NCBI RefSeq assembly: GCF_000007985.2
Contig: NC_002939.5
Span: forward strand, 2,790,001-2,822,000
DNA from: Geobacter sulfurreducens PCA
GTDB lineage: Bacteria > Desulfobacterota > Desulfuromonadia > Geobacterales > Geobacteraceae
DNA: 32,000 bases
Direction: 5' to 3'
A program made the translations under genes and the position numbers. Below the pieces are notes generated by a model. The model made no database searches and was not told the origin of the DNA. It was given only the letters and a program-made list of their open reading frames with translations. Positions 6,308-14,648 of the stretch are shown in pieces. How positions within the stretch are numbered: position 1 is the stretch's first letter; each line of letters begins with the position of its first letter.

Positions 6308-7666
6308 CTAGCACGGGGATCCGGCACACGCCTGCGGCGCAGCGTCTACCGCCCCGGCGCAGGGATCGTGCATCGCGAAGGCGAAACGGTTTTTCCCGAG
6401 GCGCTTGGCCCGGTACATGGCCGCGTCGGCCTTTCTGAGCAGGCTTTCCGCATCGGCCGCATCGAGGGGATACATGCTGATGCCGATACTGGCCCCGACG
6501 GTACATTCGCCGCCGGCGAGCGCTACCGGCACGGCCAGTGCTTCGATGATCTTGCCCGCCACCATGGCCGCGTCGGCTTCGCCTGAAACCCGGGTGAGGA
6601 TGACGGTGAATTCGTCCCCCCCCATCCGGGCCACCGAGTCGGCCTTGCGCAGGCATGATTCGATGCGCCTGGCCGCCTCCATCAGGAGCACGTCGCCGGC
6701 GTCGTGGCCGAAGACATCGTTCACTCCCTTGAAATGGTCCAGGTCTATGAAGAGGAGCGCGGCACACTGCCGGTCCCGCTCGGCCTGGCGCAGGCTCACG
6801 TCGAGGCGGTCGAAAAACAGCACCCGGTTGGCCAGGCCGGTGAGGGGATCGTGGTGAGCCAGGAACTCCAGTCGTCTTTTCGCCAGCTTCTTTTCCGTTA
6901 TATCACGAATAATAACCTGTAACGCCTCTTCCCCCTCGTGGGAAAAGGGGACTGCCGCCAGTTCAACGTCGACGGCTCGGCCACCGGGGAGGGTGAGCCG
7001 TTCCTCGAACCAGGGCACGGCATCGGAGCCGGTGGATTCCGACGCGAGCTGGTCGCGGACCAGGCAGAGGTAATCGGGGGACACCAGGTCCGCTACCCGC
7101 CGGCCGATCACCCCCGTCGGATCGGATGCCCCCAGCAGGCGGGCCCCCGCGGCATTGATGAAGGCGATCCGGTCCCCCACGTGGATGGCGATGCCGTCGG
7201 GCGACAACTCCACCAAGCGGCGATAGCGCTCCTCCCGGTCGCGGATCATCTCGGCCATCAATTCCTTTTCCCGGAGCAGTTCCTGCCGGGTCAGGACCTG
7301 CTCGATCACGATGGGGAGCAGTTCGATGTACCCCATCTCCAGGTCCTTCACCACGTAGTCCGCCGCCCCCTGCTTGAGGGCTTCCACTGCCACCTTCTCG
7401 CTTCCGTTGCCCGTAACCATGATGACGGGGATATCGACACCCCTGGCCGCAAGGGTGGCAATCACCTCGATGCCGCCGCAGACGGGCATATCGTAGTCCG
7501 CCAGAATCAGATCGTAGGAGGTCCCTTCAAGCACGGTAAGCCCGGCCGCGCCATCGGCAACGACATCAACCTGGTACCCCTTGCGCAGCAGGCTCTTCTG
7601 GAGCAGCCGGGCGAGAGCGGGGTTGTCCTCCATGTACAGAATCCGGATCGGACGTGATTCGGCCAT
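6308..7666 (-). CDS. Response regulator-PAS-GGDEF diguanylate cyclase
   Basis: REC motifs (ILYMEDN, LILADYDMP, VVKD), a PAS region and a GGDEF domain with intact GGDEF. GHDAGD carries the guanine-specifying Asp. The RKAD I-site lies 5 residues before GGDEF. SD GAGGTGG lies upstream of the ATG at 7666. Confidence 0.9.
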   Translation of the reverse strand: MAESRPIRILYMEDNPALARLLQKSLLRKGYQVDVVADGAAGLTVLEGTSYDLILADYDMPVCGGIEVIATLAARGVDIPVIMVTGNGSEKVAVEALKQGAADYVVKDLEMGYIELLPIVIEQVLTRQELLREKELMAEMIRDREERYRRLVELSPDGIAIHVGDRIAFINAAGARLLGASDPTGVIGRRVADLVSPDYLCLVRDQLASESTGSDAVPWFEERLTLPGGRAVDVELAAVPFSHEGEEALQVIIRDITEKKLAKRRLEFLAHHDPLTGLANRVLFFDRLDVSLRQAERDRQCAALLFIDLDHFKGVNDVFGHDAGDVLLMEAARRIESCLRKADSVARMGGDEFTVILTRVSGEADAAMVAGKIIEALAVPVALAGGECTVGASIGISMYPLDAADAESLLRKADAAMYRAKRLGKNRFAFAMHDPCAGAVDAAPQACAGSPC

Positions 7667-9427: not shown

Positions 9428-11335
9428 TCATTCCCCCAGGTAGGTGTAGCCCAGGAGCGTCCGGTCCAGCAGCTCAAGGAAATGGCTACTCTCCTCGATG
9501 GTGACCTTGCGAAGGGCCACGTCCTTCTCCAGGGTGTCGCGGACGTGCTTCAGGATCTCCGGCCCCTTGTACTGGACGTACTTGAGGCTCTCCCAGGTGG
9601 CGTCGCCATGGATGACCGTATCGATCTTGTAGCCGGTCTTCTTGTTGAAGGTGACGTGGACGGCGTTGGTATCGCCGAACAGGTTGTGCATGTCCCCCAG
9701 GATCTCCTGGTAGGCGCCGATCAGGAAGAAGCCCACGAAATAGTCCTCGTCCTTGCGCATCTTGTGAAGCGGCAGGTACTTGGTCCGGCCGTTCTCGCCC
9801 ACGAAGCTGGTGATCTCCCCGTCCGAATCGCAGGTGATGTCGGCGATGGAGGCCATCACGTCGGGCTTCTGGTTGAGCCGCTGGATCGGCACGATGGGAA
9901 AGAGCTGGTCGATGGCCCAAGAGTCGGGAATCGACTGGAACAGCGAGAAATTGGCGAAATAGGTCTGCCGCAGGCTCAGCTGGAAATTCTGGAGCTCCTC
10001 GGGGATCGGCTTGATCTTTTCCACGATGCCGTTGATCTTGCGCAGGATCTTACCGTGGAGCCACTCGGCCATGGCCCGCTCGTTAAGGGTCAGGTAGCCC
10101 AGGTTGAAGAGGCTCACCGCCTCTTGGATGAGCTGGACCGTATCGTGGTAGTCCTCCCGCAGAGAATAGCGGTCGATGCTCTTGTAGATGTCCACCAGCT
10201 TCTTGACCGTTGGGGCCAGCTTTTCCGTGCCGTTGAGGGTCTCCTCGAAGTCGGGCATGGCATTGGACGTGTTGGTGTTGAGGAGATTGGTCACGAGCAC
10301 CGAGTAGTGGGCCGCCGTGGCCCGCCCCGATTCGGAGATGATGTTGGGGCATTCGACGCCGGCGTCCTCACAGATGTTCTTGATCTGGTAGATGACGTCG
10401 TTGGCGTACTCCTCGATGGAGTAGTTGACGCTGGAGAAGTAGCTCGACTTGGACCCGTCGTAGTCGACCCCCAGGCCGCCGCCGATGTCCACGTACCGGA
10501 TGCCGACCCCCAGCTTGCGCATCTCGGCGTAGATACGGGTTCCCTCGATCAGGGCGCTCTTGATCTTGTCGATCTTGGTGATCTGGCTGCCGATGTGGAA
10601 GTGGAGGAGCTTCACCCGGTCCAGGAGGTCATTTTGCTCCAGGAGCCCGATAGCGGCGATGATCTCCGACATCCGGAGGCCGAACTTGGCGTCCTCACCG
10701 CCGGAAGTGGCCCACTTGCCGGTCCCCTTGGAGGAAAGCTTCACCCGGATGCCCAGCTTGGGCTTGATGCCGGTCTTTTTCGACAGGGCAATGATCTTCT
10801 CCAGCTCGAACATCTTCTCCACCACGATGGTGATGTCGTAGCCGATCTTGGTGGCGTAGAGGACCGTCTCGATATACTCGGTGTCCTTGTAACCGTTGCA
10901 GATGATGGGGATGCCGTTGCCGGTGGCGAAGGAGATGCCGATCACCAGCTCCGGCTTGGAGCCCACTTCCAGGCCGATATTGTAGCGCTTGCCGAACTTG
11001 GCGATGGCCTCCACCACCTGGCGCTGCTGGTTCACCTTGATGGGGTAGAAGGTCTGGTAGGTGGCCGGGTAGTCGTTCTCGTCGATGGCGTTCTTGAAGA
11101 CTCGGTTGATGGATGCGATCCGCCCCTGGAGCACGTCCATGAACCGGAGCAGGATGGGGGGCTTGATCTTGCGCTTGATCAGATCGTCCACCAGGGCACG
11201 CAGGTCGATGGAATGCTTGGACGTGGGTGACGGGTGCACGCAGACGTTCCCCTTCTTGTTGATGGAGAAGAGGTCGGCGCCCCAGTTGGGCAGGTTGTAG
11301 ATCTTCGCAGATTCGTTAATCGACCAGCGTTCCAT
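9428..11335 (-). CDS. speA: Biosynthetic arginine decarboxylase
   Basis: 642-aa ORF. The ATG at 11335 (MERWSI...) has SD AGGAGA 4 nt upstream; the ATG at 11356 has none. The N-terminus ...YNLPNWGADLFSIN..G.. and a PLP-dependent fold-III decarboxylase body (YPIKVN, HFHIGSQ, DIGGGLGVDY) are typical of SpeA. Confidence 0.95.
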   Translation of the reverse strand: MERWSINESAKIYNLPNWGADLFSINKKGNVCVHPSPTSKHSIDLRALVDDLIKRKIKPPILLRFMDVLQGRIASINRVFKNAIDENDYPATYQTFYPIKVNQQRQVVEAIAKFGKRYNIGLEVGSKPELVIGISFATGNGIPIICNGYKDTEYIETVLYATKIGYDITIVVEKMFELEKIIALSKKTGIKPKLGIRVKLSSKGTGKWATSGGEDAKFGLRMSEIIAAIGLLEQNDLLDRVKLLHFHIGSQITKIDKIKSALIEGTRIYAEMRKLGVGIRYVDIGGGLGVDYDGSKSSYFSSVNYSIEEYANDVIYQIKNICEDAGVECPNIISESGRATAAHYSVLVTNLLNTNTSNAMPDFEETLNGTEKLAPTVKKLVDIYKSIDRYSLREDYHDTVQLIQEAVSLFNLGYLTLNERAMAEWLHGKILRKINGIVEKIKPIPEELQNFQLSLRQTYFANFSLFQSIPDSWAIDQLFPIVPIQRLNQKPDVMASIADITCDSDGEITSFVGENGRTKYLPLHKMRKDEDYFVGFFLIGAYQEILGDMHNLFGDTNAVHVTFNKKTGYKIDTVIHGDATWESLKYVQYKGPEILKHVRDTLEKDVALRKVTIEESSHFLELLDRTLLGYTYLGE

Positions 11336-11411
11336 ATGCTCTCCTGGCGACGCCATATTCGCGCACTAACGCCGCTGTTAGGTAATCGTTTTCAGTTTAC
11401 GGTTTTCCAAA

Positions 11412-11532
11412 GGGGCGAGAGATTTCGGCCAGATCGACGCATCCGCAGGAAGCCTGGCGGAGGCGTAGCAGCGCTACGCCGCACAACGAAGCTTACGAGG
11501 ACGGCGTCGAGATGGTCGGAAGATATCGCCCC
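11412..11532. repeat. 121-nt structured intergenic repeat, copy A (between nspC stop and speA start)
   Basis: Aligns without gaps to 12758-12878, with 100/121 positions identical by hand count and a 34-nt identical core. Terminal helix GGGGCGA/TCGCCCC. Invariant hairpin GGCGTAGC-agc-GCTACGCC at 11462-11480. Confidence 0.85.
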
Positions 11533-11533
11533 C

Positions 11534-12736
11534 CTACGACAATCTGCTCCTGAAATCCTCGTATCCGAACTTCCTCACCACCCTCAACTCCCCGGTTTCC
11601 GGCTCGAAGGTACAGATGGCCGGATGCTGGATGCCGTTAAAGGTGGTGGTCTTCACCATGGTGTAGTGGGACATGTCCTCGAAAACGAGCCGGTCTCCCG
11701 GCTTCAGGGGCTTATCAAAGGACCAGTCGCCGATGACGTCCCCGGCCAGGCATGACGGCCCCGCCAGGCGGTAGGTGTGGGCCTTCTCGCCGGGGTCGAA
11801 GCCGGCGGTGATGCCGGGACGGTACGGCATCTCCAGCACGTCGGGCATGTGGCAGGTGGCGGAGACGTCGAGGATGGCGATGTCCATCTCATTGTGCACC
11901 ACGTCCAGCACCTCCCCCACGAGGATGCCGGTGCCGATGGCGATGGCCTCCCCCGGCTCCAGGTAGACCTCCACGCCGTACTTTCTCTTGAAGTATGTGA
12001 TCAGCTCCACCAGGGCGTCGATATCGTAACCCTCACGGGTGATATGGTGGCCGCCCCCCAGATTCAGCCACTTCATGCCGTGGAGAAACGGGCCGAACTT
12101 TTCTTCAAATACCTTCGCGGTCCGCGCCAGGGGCTCGAAGAGCTGCTCGCAGAGGGTATGGAAGTGGAGCCCCTCTACCCCTTCGAGGGATCTGCCGTCG
12201 AACTCCCGCCGGGGGATGCCGAGCCGCGACGCGGGCGCGCACGGATCGTAGATGGGGGTGTGCCCCTCGGAGTGCTCGGGGTTCACCCGCAGCCCCACCG
12301 AGACCCGTCCCCGCTCCTTCTCCCACAGGGGCCGGAACCGCTCCAGCTGGTTGAAGGAGTTGAAAACCAGGTGGTTGGAGGTTTGAAGCAGCTCCACCAC
12401 GTCGCTCTCCTTGAAGGCGGCGGCAAAGCTGTGGACCTCCCGGCCGAACTCCTCGCGCCCCAACCGGGCCTCCCACGGAGAGCTGGCACAGACCCCGTGA
12501 AGCGTCTCCCGGATGATCGGGAAGACGCTCCACATGGCGAAGGCCTTCAACGCCATGAGTATCTTCGCGCCGCTGCGCCGCTGCACCTGGTCCAGGATGG
12601 CCAGATTGTGGCGCAGCCGCCCCAGGTCCACCACATAGGCGGGAGACGGGGCAAGCTTCAGGATTTTGTCGATATCGATGCCGGTCAAATTCAAAACCTT
12701 TTCAAAACAGTAACCACAGGGGTCACAGAGGAACAC
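11534..12736 (-). CDS. nspC: Carboxynorspermidine/carboxyspermidine decarboxylase
   Basis: 400-aa ORF beginning at a GTG. The true start may be an internal TTG a few codons downstream (..LTGIDIDKILKL..), after AAAGG. PLP fold-III decarboxylase with the NspC-like motifs LKAF..., GLHFH, LNLGGGH and YLEPGEA. Confidence 0.9.
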   Translation of the reverse strand: MFLCDPCGYCFEKVLNLTGIDIDKILKLAPSPAYVVDLGRLRHNLAILDQVQRRSGAKILMALKAFAMWSVFPIIRETLHGVCASSPWEARLGREEFGREVHSFAAAFKESDVVELLQTSNHLVFNSFNQLERFRPLWEKERGRVSVGLRVNPEHSEGHTPIYDPCAPASRLGIPRREFDGRSLEGVEGLHFHTLCEQLFEPLARTAKVFEEKFGPFLHGMKWLNLGGGHHITREGYDIDALVELITYFKRKYGVEVYLEPGEAIAIGTGILVGEVLDVVHNEMDIAILDVSATCHMPDVLEMPYRPGITAGFDPGEKAHTYRLAGPSCLAGDVIGDWSFDKPLKPGDRLVFEDMSHYTMVKTTTFNGIQHPAICTFEPETGELRVVRKFGYEDFRSRLS

Positions 12737-12757
12737 AGAGTAAACGCCTTAACCGCC

Positions 12758-12878
12758 GGAGCGCAAGATTTCGGCCGGGTCCTCGCACCCGCAGGGATGC
12801 CGGCGGAGGCGTAGCAGCGCTACGCCGCACAACGAGCATTCCGAGGACGGCGGTGAGATGGTCGGAAGATTGCGCTCC
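12758..12878. repeat. 121-nt structured intergenic repeat, copy B (between dehydrogenase stop and nspC start)
   Basis: Same element as 11412-11532, in the same orientation. Terminal helix GGAGCGCAA/TTGCGCTCC, which covaries with copy A. Invariant hairpin at 12808-12826. Confidence 0.85.
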
Positions 12879-12880
12879 TC

Positions 12881-14077
12881 TTACAGCTCCGGCCACTCGC
12901 CGCCGTCCACCACCACCGTCGGCAGCCCCATGGGCCCAAGCTCCGCCAGGAACGGCTCGGGATCGAACTGTTCCATGTTCCAGACACCGGGGGCGTGCCA
13001 TTTGCCGGTCAGCATCATGATCCCGCCCACCACCGCCGGTACGCCGGTGGTGTAGCTGATGGCCTGGGAGCCAACCTCTTTGTAGCAGGCCTCGTGGTCG
13101 CAGATGTTGTAGATGTAGACCTGTTTCCGCTTGCCGTCCTTGAGACCGCGGGCGATGACGCCGATGCAGGTCTTCCCCTTGGTGAGGGGGCCGAGGGAAC
13201 CCGGATCGGGGAGGAGCGCCTTCAGGAACTGGATCGGCACGATCTTCTGCCCCTGGAACTCCACCTCGTCGATACGGGTCATGCCCACGTTCTGCAGCAC
13301 CTCCAGGTGCTTCAGGTAGTTGTCGGAGAAGGTCATCCAGAACTGGGCCTTCCTGATGGTCGGGATATGCTTGACGATGGACTCCATCTCCTCGTGATAG
13401 AGACGATAGATGTTCATGGGGCCGATCCCCTCGGGGAAATCGAAGACCTGCTTGGTCGAAAGGGGGGGCGTCTCGACGAACTCGCCGTTCTCCCAGTGGC
13501 GGCACGGAGCGGTCACCTCGCGGATGTTGATCTCCGGGTTGAAGTTGGTGGCAAAGGGCTGGCCGTGGCTCCCGGCGTTGGCATCGATGATATCGATCTC
13601 CTGCACCTCGTCCAGGTACTTCTTGGCGGCCAGGGCGGTGTAGACGTTGGTCACGCCGGGGTCGAAGCCGGAACCGAGCAGCGCCATGAGCCCAGCGCTC
13701 TTGAAACGGTCCTGATAGGCCCACTGCCAGGAGTACTCGAACTTGGCGGTGTCCAGGGGCTCGTAGTTGGCGGTGTCCAGGTAGTCCACGCCGGTCTCCA
13801 GGCAGGCATCCATGATGGTCAGGTCCTGGTACGGCAGGGCCACGTTGATGACGAGCTTCGGCTGCTCTTTCTTGATGAGCGCCACCAGCTCGGGAACATT
13901 GTCCGCGTCCACCTGGGCAGTGGCGATGCTGTTGTTCAGCTGGGCGGCGATGGCGTCGCACTTGGACTTGGTCCGGGAGGCGAGGGTGATCCCGCTGAAG
14001 ATGTCCCTGCGCTGGGCGCACTTGTGGGCAACGACCTGGCCGACGCCGCCGGCTCCGATTATCAGTACCTTGCTCAT
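12881..14077 (-). CDS. Carboxynorspermidine/carboxyspermidine dehydrogenase (saccharopine dehydrogenase family)
   Basis: Start moved to the ATG at 14077 (MSKVLIIGAGGVGQVV, a Rossmann GxGxxG), preceded by a strong SD AAGGAGA with a 7-nt spacer. Long saccharopine-dehydrogenase-like body. Adjacent to nspC, as in the alternative spermidine pathway. Confidence 0.9.
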   Translation of the reverse strand: MSKVLIIGAGGVGQVVAHKCAQRRDIFSGITLASRTKSKCDAIAAQLNNSIATAQVDADNVPELVALIKKEQPKLVINVALPYQDLTIMDACLETGVDYLDTANYEPLDTAKFEYSWQWAYQDRFKSAGLMALLGSGFDPGVTNVYTALAAKKYLDEVQEIDIIDANAGSHGQPFATNFNPEINIREVTAPCRHWENGEFVETPPLSTKQVFDFPEGIGPMNIYRLYHEEMESIVKHIPTIRKAQFWMTFSDNYLKHLEVLQNVGMTRIDEVEFQGQKIVPIQFLKALLPDPGSLGPLTKGKTCIGVIARGLKDGKRKQVYIYNICDHEACYKEVGSQAISYTTGVPAVVGGIMMLTGKWHAPGVWNMEQFDPEPFLAELGPMGLPTVVVDGGEWPEL

Positions 14078-14102: not shown

Positions 14103-14648
14103 TCAGTAATCAAATGTCGGCGGGGTCACGACCCACAATATCTTGGCCGGCCCCTTGCCGATATTTTTCACCGTATGGCGCTTGTCCGAGGTGAAGTAGA
14201 AGCATTCGTCCTTTTTCAGCGTGTAGACCTTGTCGTCCAGCCGGAGCTGGATTCGGCCCAGAAGGACGAAGCCGAACTCCTCTCCCTCGTGGAAGTTCTG
14301 CTCGTCCATCTCCTCGCCCGGGGCCAGGGTCACCAGGGCCGGGTCCATCTCCCGGTTCTGGGCGCCGGGGACGAGGAGTTCCACCATCACGGCCGCATCG
14401 TCGGCCGAGGGCTGAACCCGGGCATCCTTGCCGTAGACCACGTCCTCGCCGATTGGATCGCTGAAGAACTCCTGCATGCTGACGCCGAACACGTCGAGGA
14501 TGTCCTTCAGAGTGGCGATGGACGGAGAGGTGGCGTCGTTCTCAAGCTGGGAGATGTATCCCTTGGTCAGGTCGGCCCGATTGGCCAATTCCTCCTGGGT
14601 GAGGGAGTTGATCATCCTGAGCCGCTTCAACCGCTCGCCGATCTTCAC
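14103..14648 (-). CDS. PuuR-like transcriptional regulator (XRE-type HTH plus C-terminal cupin)
   Basis: GTG start at 14648 with SD AGGAGA 6 nt upstream. N-terminal HTH (LTQEELANRADLTKGYISQLEN). C-terminal cupin beta-barrel (..HEGEEFGFVLLGRI...CFYF..). Size (181 aa) and architecture match the PuuR/XRE-cupin regulators. Confidence 0.85.
   Translation of the reverse strand: MKIGERLKRLRMINSLTQEELANRADLTKGYISQLENDATSPSIATLKDILDVFGVSMQEFFSDPIGEDVVYGKDARVQPSADDAAVMVELLVPGAQNREMDPALVTLAPGEEMDEQNFHEGEEFGFVLLGRIQLRLDDKVYTLKKDECFYFTSDKRHTVKNIGKGPAKILWVVTPPTFDY

Follow-up and report, generated by a model that had tools for sequence, protein, structure and literature searches.

The polyamine genes of Geobacter sulfurreducens PCA raise the question of whether two similar repeats, which bracket the carboxynorspermidine decarboxylase gene nspC, take part in controlling the pathway or have another origin. 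We analysed a window of 32,000 nucleotides (nt) of this genome (NC_002939.5, positions 2,790,001 to 2,822,000); all coordinates below follow the numbering of the window unless a stretch label (L with a number) is given. Copy A (11412-11532) lies between nspC and the arginine decarboxylase gene speA, and copy B (12758-12878) lies between nspC and a carboxynorspermidine dehydrogenase gene. The reading that we favour, and consider probable as a whole, is that both repeats belong to a large interspersed family of rod-shaped palindromic repeats (approximately 115-130 nt) rather than to the polyamine pathway, that they spread via a single strand and that they exert side effects on the operon. Their membership in the Gmet_R10xx family and their generic, non-polyamine nature are very likely. 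Mobility through a single strand is the more tentative part, for which we would not claim even odds.

The two copies align without gaps and are identical at 100 of 121 positions. The longest run common to both is 34 nt (GGCGGAGGCGTAGCAGCGCTACGCCGCACAACGA; 11456-11489 in copy A), and the resemblance of copy A to copy B extends to 11535. In a direct-repeat search of the whole window, this pair came out on top (124 nt, 82%), and the remaining direct-repeat families are at noise level (at most 42 nt, 60-79% identity). The coordinates, identity and 34-nt core given in an original prediction from the sequence were exact on realignment, and the compensatory pairs that it described between copy A and copy B are correct (11414 G/11530 C to 12760 A/12876 T; 11418 A/11526 T to 12764 C/12872 G). 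Two extra double changes are located in an inner helix (11452/11492, G-C to U-A; 11453/11491, C-G to G-C). Gene calls, with gene lengths checked via homologues, confirmed that the flanking genes are on the minus strand and that the copies lie 1-2 nt from stop codons. The end of copy A is separated by 1 nt from the nspC stop codon (11534-11536; CTA on the plus strand), and that of copy B by 2 nt from the dehydrogenase stop codon (12881-12883; TTA on the plus strand).

A widespread repeat family

In G. metallireducens, 24 "predicted short RNA elements" with the common palindrome GRCGTAGCGCTGCTACGCC were listed previously (Aklujkar 2009, PMC2700814, Additional file 4). These Gmet_R10xx elements are 111-116 nt in length and intergenic (PMC2700814). 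The minus strand of both window copies reads GGCGTAGCGCTGCTACGCC, the core of which matches this palindrome and identifies the copies as members of the family. Gmet_R1011 (993381-993494) and Gmet_R1012 (994727-994840) are located 5´ of nspC and speA (PMC2700814, Additional file 5), with a start-to-start spacing of 1346 nt that is the same as the spacing of the window copies. A model of the repeat (R1) aligns over its full length at the two orthologous places of G. metallireducens (108.1 and 102.7 bits) and scores 113.8 bits for copy A and 107.8 bits for copy B. Alignments A3 and A4 agree with this orthology, in which copy A corresponds to Gmet_R1012 and copy B to Gmet_R1011.

The other G. metallireducens copies adjoin hemE and genes for NADH dehydrogenase (nuo), dapL, cytochrome oxidase (cox), transketolase (tkt), nitrogenase (nifD), aldehyde:ferredoxin oxidoreductase (aor), a sensor kinase, fliK and a ferritin-like protein, among others (PMC2700814). 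The 2009 paper, which concerned a different species and offered an alignment and a neighbour list only, proposed a link to lysine and arginine genes that its neighbour list does not bear out. It also oriented the elements on the strand that was found to be less structured here. The sequences in its supplement drop 1-2 letters per row in extraction and were excluded from our counts.

A scan with the core pattern CGTAGCNNNGCTACGCCTSCG, with one genome per species, returned at least 120 loci. These loci belong to Geobacteraceae, Desulfobacterales, Desulfobulbaceae, Syntrophales, Myxococcales, Nitrospira, Bdellovibrio, Thermoanaerobaculia and a few Firmicutes and Actinobacteria. Nearly all of the matches listed, taken with 62 nt per side, are full rod-like hairpins of approximately 115-180 nt with variable arms. 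At least three subfamilies were distinguished: the window type (…GCGGAGG, the hairpin, then CCGCACAA…), a Desulfobacterales type with the conserved ends GTGTCC…GGACAC and a longer type of approximately 180 nt. The model also detects copies that do not have the exact core. Viral contigs hold only seven matches, and a plasmid search gave none. In Rfam, the window and 18 loci gave no match at the gathering score, and the window and representatives of the three subfamilies gave nothing relevant at E <= 10. A literature search with the core sequence and the locus tags found only Aklujkar 2009 (PMC2700814), and one for REP, RAYT or MITEs (miniature transposable elements with inverted repeats) in Geobacter found only the Chunjie MITE, which is unrelated.

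Tandem or closely spaced copies were observed in three stretches (L114, approximately 7030-7280; L064, 5130-5430; L119, approximately 1-150), with start-to-start spacings of 123, 171 and approximately 98 nt. Many of the listed matches are at contig ends, as expected of high-copy repeats that break assemblies.

This distribution bears directly on a pathway-specific, polyamine-responsive leader for nspC and speA, which the original prediction had offered as a candidate. The location of the copies upstream of both genes and a structure with compensatory changes speak for such a riboswitch. The genes beside the family are not consistent with one pathway: the 24 G. metallireducens copies adjoin unrelated genes, the neighbour proteins at the at least 120 loci are of generic families, and several phyla are represented. 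The structured strand, as described below, is antisense to the genes. Each copy starts at the stop codon of the upstream gene and ends before the next start codon (69 nt for copy B before nspC, 76 nt for copy A before speA). Scans of both strands placed no sigma-70-type promoter, no terminator and no expression platform in or close to either copy, and in particular no intrinsic terminator (a GC-rich hairpin with a U run) at either copy and no feature that would sequester a Shine-Dalgarno sequence. G. benzoatilyticus has neither copy A nor copy B, G. pickeringii has copy B and no copy A, and both keep the three genes. Together with the lack of an Rfam match, these observations make polyamine sensing by the repeats unlikely, and a riboswitch or leader of this type can be given hardly any credence. 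The original prediction had itself named scatter over many unrelated loci as the mark of a generic REP-like repeat, and the family shows this scatter. The first candidate of the original prediction, a REP-like element, came closest to the actual nature of the copies, which is that of a generic multicopy hairpin repeat.

Structure and strand polarity

The rod has a common anatomy. From the base to the apex, it comprises P1 (7-9 bp, of free sequence), a small loop rich in purines, P2 (9-10 bp), a GA/GA loop in tandem and P3, above which are a CC-GCA…GA-GG internal loop, a variable P4 and an apical 8-bp stem with a 3-nt loop. On the plus strand of copy A, P1 is formed by 11412-11418 and 11526-11532, the purine-rich loop by 11419-11422 and 11522-11525, P2 by 11423-11431 and 11513-11521 with two G·U pairs, the tandem GA/GA loop by 11432-11433 and 11511-11512, and P3 by 11434-11440 and 11504-11510. 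The apical hairpin of copy A (11462-11480, plus strand; GGCGTAGC-AGC-GCTACGCC) is the signature palindrome of the family and lies within the identical core. Copy B forms the corresponding P1 (12758-12766/12870-12878) and P2 (12769-12777/12859-12867) on the same strand, and its apical hairpin (12808-12826) lies within the core at 12802-12835.

The pairing is maintained across the family. In an alignment of 29 window-type sequences on the structured strand (A2), RNAalifold predicted 32 pairs, 22 of which contain double changes. Pairing was retained in 94.5% of the pairing cells compared with 75.5% in shuffles, and 157 cells carried double changes compared with 45. The covariation score was 0.526, compared with 0.165 in shuffles (0 of 500 reached 0.526) and 0.12-0.17 in slid controls. 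In palindromic DNA, covariation alone cannot separate RNA from DNA, and template switching between the two arms can also produce it. The original prediction had proposed a folded RNA or DNA under selection instead of a recent neutral duplication. The fold is indeed maintained, with strong covariation over 29 relatives; a structure on the operon mRNA is not supported, as the strand that carries the structure runs antisense to nspC and speA.

RNA folding of the plus strand, which is antisense to the genes, gave z-scores of -6.6 for copy A and -5.0 for copy B, compared with -4.4 and -1.05 for the coding strand. DNA energy parameters again favoured the plus strand, with a smaller gap. The plus strand folds better because P2 (UUUCGGCC/GGUCGGAA) contains two G·U pairs there, which become C·A mismatches on the coding strand. 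The same polarity was observed throughout the family. The strand equivalent to the window plus strand folds better in 104 of 109 extracted elements, with a mean minimum free energy of -68.7 compared with -53.7 kcal/mol (an average gap of 15). The structured strand of 81 full rods contains 483 G·U pairs, a share of 11%, and 22 single A·C mismatches, and its complement contains 205 and 157, respectively. The variable helices of A2 alone contain 69 G·U pairs and 11 A·C mismatches.

The structured strand is antisense to the genes here and in approximately 78% of copies. The bias is present in every gene context: it was found in 11 of 11 copies with both neighbours on the same strand as the structure (same/same), in 45 of 45 with both on the opposite strand (opp/opp), and in 10 of 10 and 3 of 3 in the remaining two contexts. 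It is thus independent of the direction of the neighbouring genes and does not result from transcription by the host. Which strand folds is a property of the element and not of the operon mRNA. Mutation bias was considered as a source of the asymmetry and was rejected, because non-template deamination favours the opposite strand and the asymmetry is independent of gene orientation.

These results bear on two explanations in which the transcript itself is what matters. In the first, the copies are host-beneficial mRNA elements of the REP or ERIC type. A hairpin after the stop codon would block 3´-to-5´ exonucleases or offer a site for RNase III or RNase E, would be opened by terminating ribosomes and would set the ratio of the three enzymes. 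Both copies are inside a string of genes on the same strand and 1-2 nt past stop codons, a contact that would allow a terminating ribosome to melt P1. The coding-strand RNA of both copies still folds (-62 and -56 kcal/mol), and repeats of the REP, ERIC and Correia types influence the stability of the mRNAs with which they are co-transcribed (Delihas 2011, PMC3184786). The pairing, however, is kept on the opposite strand. Over the whole sample, 157 A·C and 107 C·U mismatches fall in the coding-strand version, which in copy B folds no better than shuffles, and relatives manage without one or both copies. We regard this explanation as unlikely, although it is the strongest of the rivals considered.

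In the second, small structured RNAs would be produced from the plus strand, antisense to the operon, and would act independently or regulate the 3´ ends of neighbouring genes in cis as antisense RNAs. RNA-like signs on the structured strand (the G·U share, G·A loops in tandem, internal loops rich in purines and strong covariation) and the intrinsic polarity of the element are consistent with this explanation, as is the name under which the family was listed in 2009 (PMC2700814). A sigma-70-type promoter and a terminator are lacking at or near either copy on both strands, and the flanks vary between copies, which makes a common external promoter unlikely. Most copies are inside same-strand gene strings, and Rfam gave no match. 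Small RNAs of this type are therefore improbable, more so than a host mRNA element.

Placement, mobility and the operon

Gene contexts were called with a codon-usage gene caller, which reproduces the genes of the window, and the ends of the elements were taken from the fold. In 36 of 76 copies, at most 6 nt separate the 3´ end of the structured strand from the stop codon of a gene on the opposite strand; a stop codon is at the other end in only 2 of 74. Both neighbours are on the opposite strand in 56 cases (opp/opp), and the remaining orientations are same/opp (15), same/same (14) and opp/same (6). A minority of copies are sense-oriented, and in these the same end immediately precedes the ribosome-binding site and the start codon of the following gene. 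At five such sites in polyamine loci, the model match stops 8-9 nt before the start codon. Database gene calls at ten sites in four Geobacter-family genomes confirmed both placement rules, the stop-codon rule at five of these sites.

TTA, CTA or TCA is present at the 3´-end junction in 59 of 80 copies. These triplets are also at the junction in 23 of 40 copies away from a called stop codon (approximately 8 expected, p = 3e-7), which argues for a TA-containing target rather than for stop codons as such. In genomes of approximately 60% G+C, harmless TA sites are mostly stop codons. The copies are generic multicopy hairpin repeats of old standing, with pairing maintained on one strand and one end at TA or stop sites.

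Comparison of the polyamine loci revealed occupied and empty sites. The locus of G. metallireducens contains four family members, and that of Geomobilimonas contains one copy, after the regulator gene. Filled sites hold the element precisely at the boundary between the stop codon and the spacer seen in empty sites. A role as a recombination substrate, a further candidate of the original prediction, is speculative; the nspC gene is kept in 5 of 5 species examined, and the nspC of the window is 94-96% identical to that of G. benzoatilyticus, G. grbiciae and G. metallireducens. In G. benzoatilyticus, a nucleotidyltransferase/HepT-like (MNT/HepT) toxin-antitoxin pair (L122, 3364-4004) is located between the dehydrogenase gene and nspC, at the place of copy B in the window. 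In G. metallireducens alone, an ISL3-family transposase gene (L121, 239-1492) immediately precedes the polyamine locus. Within genomes, the similarity between paralogous copies stops at the ends of the rod, such that the repeated unit is exactly the hairpin, and the copies of some genomes are 97-99% identical. The small size, the many copies and the terminal inverted repeats expected of MITEs are present, with the hairpin itself as the unit.

The long subfamily (C; approximately 180 nt) differs from that of the window. Its elements (L018, L027, L036, L050, L058, L070, L072, L084, L086, L100 and L106) hold the same core between conserved inverted ends of greater length (GGGACTCGGAAT… or GAGCTTGTCCGTAAAT…). 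They resemble classical MITEs and, unlike the window's subfamily, lack the orientation bias. A 3-bp duplication, mostly TAA, flanks the element in 16 of 19 cases of the long subfamily compared with 7.8 expected. The ends of these elements (GGGACTCGGAAT…, GAGCTTGTCCGTAAATAA…) may resemble those of the IS5 family and of Tourist elements.

The mechanism that we propose from these observations is conditional. The fold would serve the element itself, a non-autonomous selfish repeat that would spread or be maintained through a single-stranded intermediate of the structured strand, either DNA or RNA. The element would land beside stop-codon-like TA sites and would persist mainly where the host mRNA holds the weaker complementary hairpin. 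In the operon transcript, a mismatched hairpin of approximately 50 bp would follow directly after the dehydrogenase and nspC stop codons. The likeliest consequence for the operon would be an incidental influence on how mRNA is degraded or processed between cistrons, with the hairpin as a possible barrier to decay or site of processing, as reported for REP, ERIC and Correia repeats (PMC3184786). Any effect of the repeats on the operon is probably a by-product. The G·U share and the G·A loops fit RNA as the intermediate, and the multicopy, two-orientation, TA-anchored distribution fits DNA.

Several points weigh against this reading. In the window's subfamily (A), a matching 3-mer that could represent a target-site duplication was found in 10 of 23 cases, compared with 8.0 expected, and the clear TAA-type duplication is confined to the long subfamily. 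The terminal helix of the window's subfamily varies in sequence between copies, unlike the ends of classical MITEs. In the 8-kb loci around the copies and among the neighbour gene clusters, no recurrent gene for a transposase, reverse transcriptase or recombinase was found, and none is tied to the family; the only recurring neighbours are response regulators, ABC-F ATPases, epimerases and trpG-like genes. No demonstrated step explains the orientation bias relative to genes, and the 11% share of G·U pairs and the purine-rich loops suit RNA as well as single-stranded DNA. The sample was gathered with a fixed core pattern, which by itself produces the invariance of the apical hairpin in the alignments and part of the apparent cross-phylum conservation; in the G. 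metallireducens set, assembled with BLAST, a few compensated variants of the apical stem occur. Some of the taxonomic labels of metagenome-assembled genomes in the scan may be wrong, and the contexts outside four loci rest on the simple in-house gene caller.

The genes of the locus are all on the minus strand. A gene for a regulator with helix-turn-helix (HTH; XRE-type) and cupin domains (14103-14648) is followed by the saccharopine-dehydrogenase-family gene Sacchrp_dh, which encodes the carboxynorspermidine dehydrogenase (12881-14074, 397 aa), by nspC (11534-12688, 384 aa) and by speA (9428-11335, 635 aa). The HTH-cupin regulator gene precedes the polyamine genes in 5 of 5 species (the window and stretches L121-L124), and the regulator is a more plausible candidate than the repeats for pathway-specific control. 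The true start of speA is ATGGAACGC at 11335, not the in-frame ATG upstream at 11356 that was chosen by the open reading frame finder. This ATG belongs to a 3´ remnant (approximately 35 nt) of a second, sense-oriented family member (11340-11376, minus strand), which is directly upstream of the true speA start. The short direct repeats GGCGT and GACGT mark the two sides of a gap of approximately 90 nt, from which the hairpin body is missing. In G. metallireducens (Gmet_R1013), G. benzoatilyticus and G. pickeringii, the corresponding member upstream of speA is intact.

Closely similar, sense-oriented members were observed in these three species at L121 2477-2606 and 5307-5436 (G. metallireducens), L122 2008-2137 and 5179-5308 (G. 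benzoatilyticus) and L123 5180-5307 (G. pickeringii). They precede the dehydrogenase gene and speA in G. metallireducens and G. benzoatilyticus and only speA in G. pickeringii, with a ribosome-binding site at the edge. These members, which the window species does not have, would be the candidates for a 5´-leader role, rather than copies A and B.

Two other features were noted at the locus. A terminator-like hairpin, GTGACCCCTGTGGTTAC then TGTTTTGAAA, is present on the minus strand between copy B and the nspC start (12710-12726). It is largely conserved in G. metallireducens, and 1.3 such sites are expected by the scan in this stretch; it could be an intercistronic attenuator or a chance occurrence. 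A sigma-54 promoter (TGGCGG-N5-TAGCA in copy A) was considered and rejected, as the fit is lost in copy B and in the other subfamilies when their sequences are read.

For this operon, the finding is ordinary. It removes a tempting polyamine-sensing reading, and annotators should mask the two copies as interspersed repeats.

Comparison with known systems

In size, in its long imperfect hairpin and in its conserved central inverted repeat, the family resembles the ERIC/IRU repeats of enterobacteria, which are MITE-like imperfect palindromes of approximately 127 bp. Both types are intergenic and co-transcribed, and effects of ERIC on mRNA stability are cited in PMC3184786. The taxa in which the two are found differ. 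ERIC duplicates TA on insertion, unlike the window's subfamily, which shows no target duplication. ERIC copies beside stop codons reportedly favour one orientation, and ribosomes are said to impede their folding. To our knowledge, the window repeats bear no resemblance in sequence to the ERIC consensus, taken here unaligned, and we know of no description of a strict one-strand pairing bias in ERIC.

REP/BIME and REPIN-RAYT systems are likewise multicopy extragenic palindromes, which are often located just 3´ of genes. REP hairpins that contain G·T pairs are thought to be single-stranded DNA substrates of a Y1 transposase. Copies of opposite orientation are paired in one intergenic region of G. 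metallireducens, in the manner of a BIME. REP units, however, are 20-40 nt in length with an unpaired 5´ GTAG and have a cognate RAYT gene that REPs flank, whereas the window unit is a multi-helix rod of approximately 120 nt with GTAG inside the apical stem. No RAYT was found, although no search aimed at one could be made.

The gene geometry also invites comparison with the attC sites of integrons. These likewise have their start at the stop codon of the gene before them, form their fold on the strand that is antisense to this gene, measure 57-141 nt and occur in gene-site-gene-site arrays. The copies could accordingly be recombination sites folded from the bottom strand, with nspC as a cassette for a single-strand-specific recombinase. 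The length of the repeats is within the attC range, and nspC is located between two direct copies. In attC sites, however, the base of the stem is conserved and the apex is variable, which is the reverse of the window repeats. Inspection of the copy ends by eye revealed no R or L boxes (RYYYAAC/GTTRRRY), no integrase is among the largest neighbour gene clusters, and the genes that the copies flank are housekeeping genes whose synteny is kept in five species. An attC-like site is very unlikely, although slightly less so than a riboswitch.

MRSC-65-2 and other "mobile/repeat sequence candidates" (MRSC) share with the family a single long stem, strong covariation, dozens of copies per genome, a distribution over diverse phyla and a short conserved repeat within the stem (Narunsky et al. 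2024, PMC11109978). The authors of that study remark that the MRSC structure may matter as DNA. Compared by description only, the MRSC-65-2 repeat is UYCCGG, and the window family carries CCGCAG and GAGGA around GGCGUAGC-N3-GCUACGYC. The accessible text and supplement of that study, which included a Geobacter genome, do not describe the window motif (PMC11109978).

A bolder interpretation, which we regard as rather unlikely, is that the repeats represent an undescribed class of strand-specific structured element in Desulfobacterota, Myxococcota, Nitrospirota and beyond. Such an element would be mobile via a folded single strand (DNA, or RNA that is copied back), with one end fixed at stop-codon-like TA sites and a fixed orientation, or it would be a widespread non-coding RNA antisense to gene ends. 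The apical module GGCGUAGC-N3-GCUACGYC, with its CCGCAG and GAGGA loops, would be a protein docking site.

The family is absent from Rfam and, in the literature searched, is mentioned only in the 2009 supplement (PMC2700814). It is under-described as a whole, has unusual features and merits proper study. Its wide range of taxa, one-strand pairing and stop-codon-anchored end make it a tractable case for the spread and persistence of hairpin repeats in bacteria. Each of the systems compared above, ERIC, REP/BIME, REPIN and attC, differs from it in a defining trait (sequence, size, duplication or a conserved base); its gene geometry resembles that of attC sites, and its behaviour is closest to that of ERIC, REP/BIME or REPIN.

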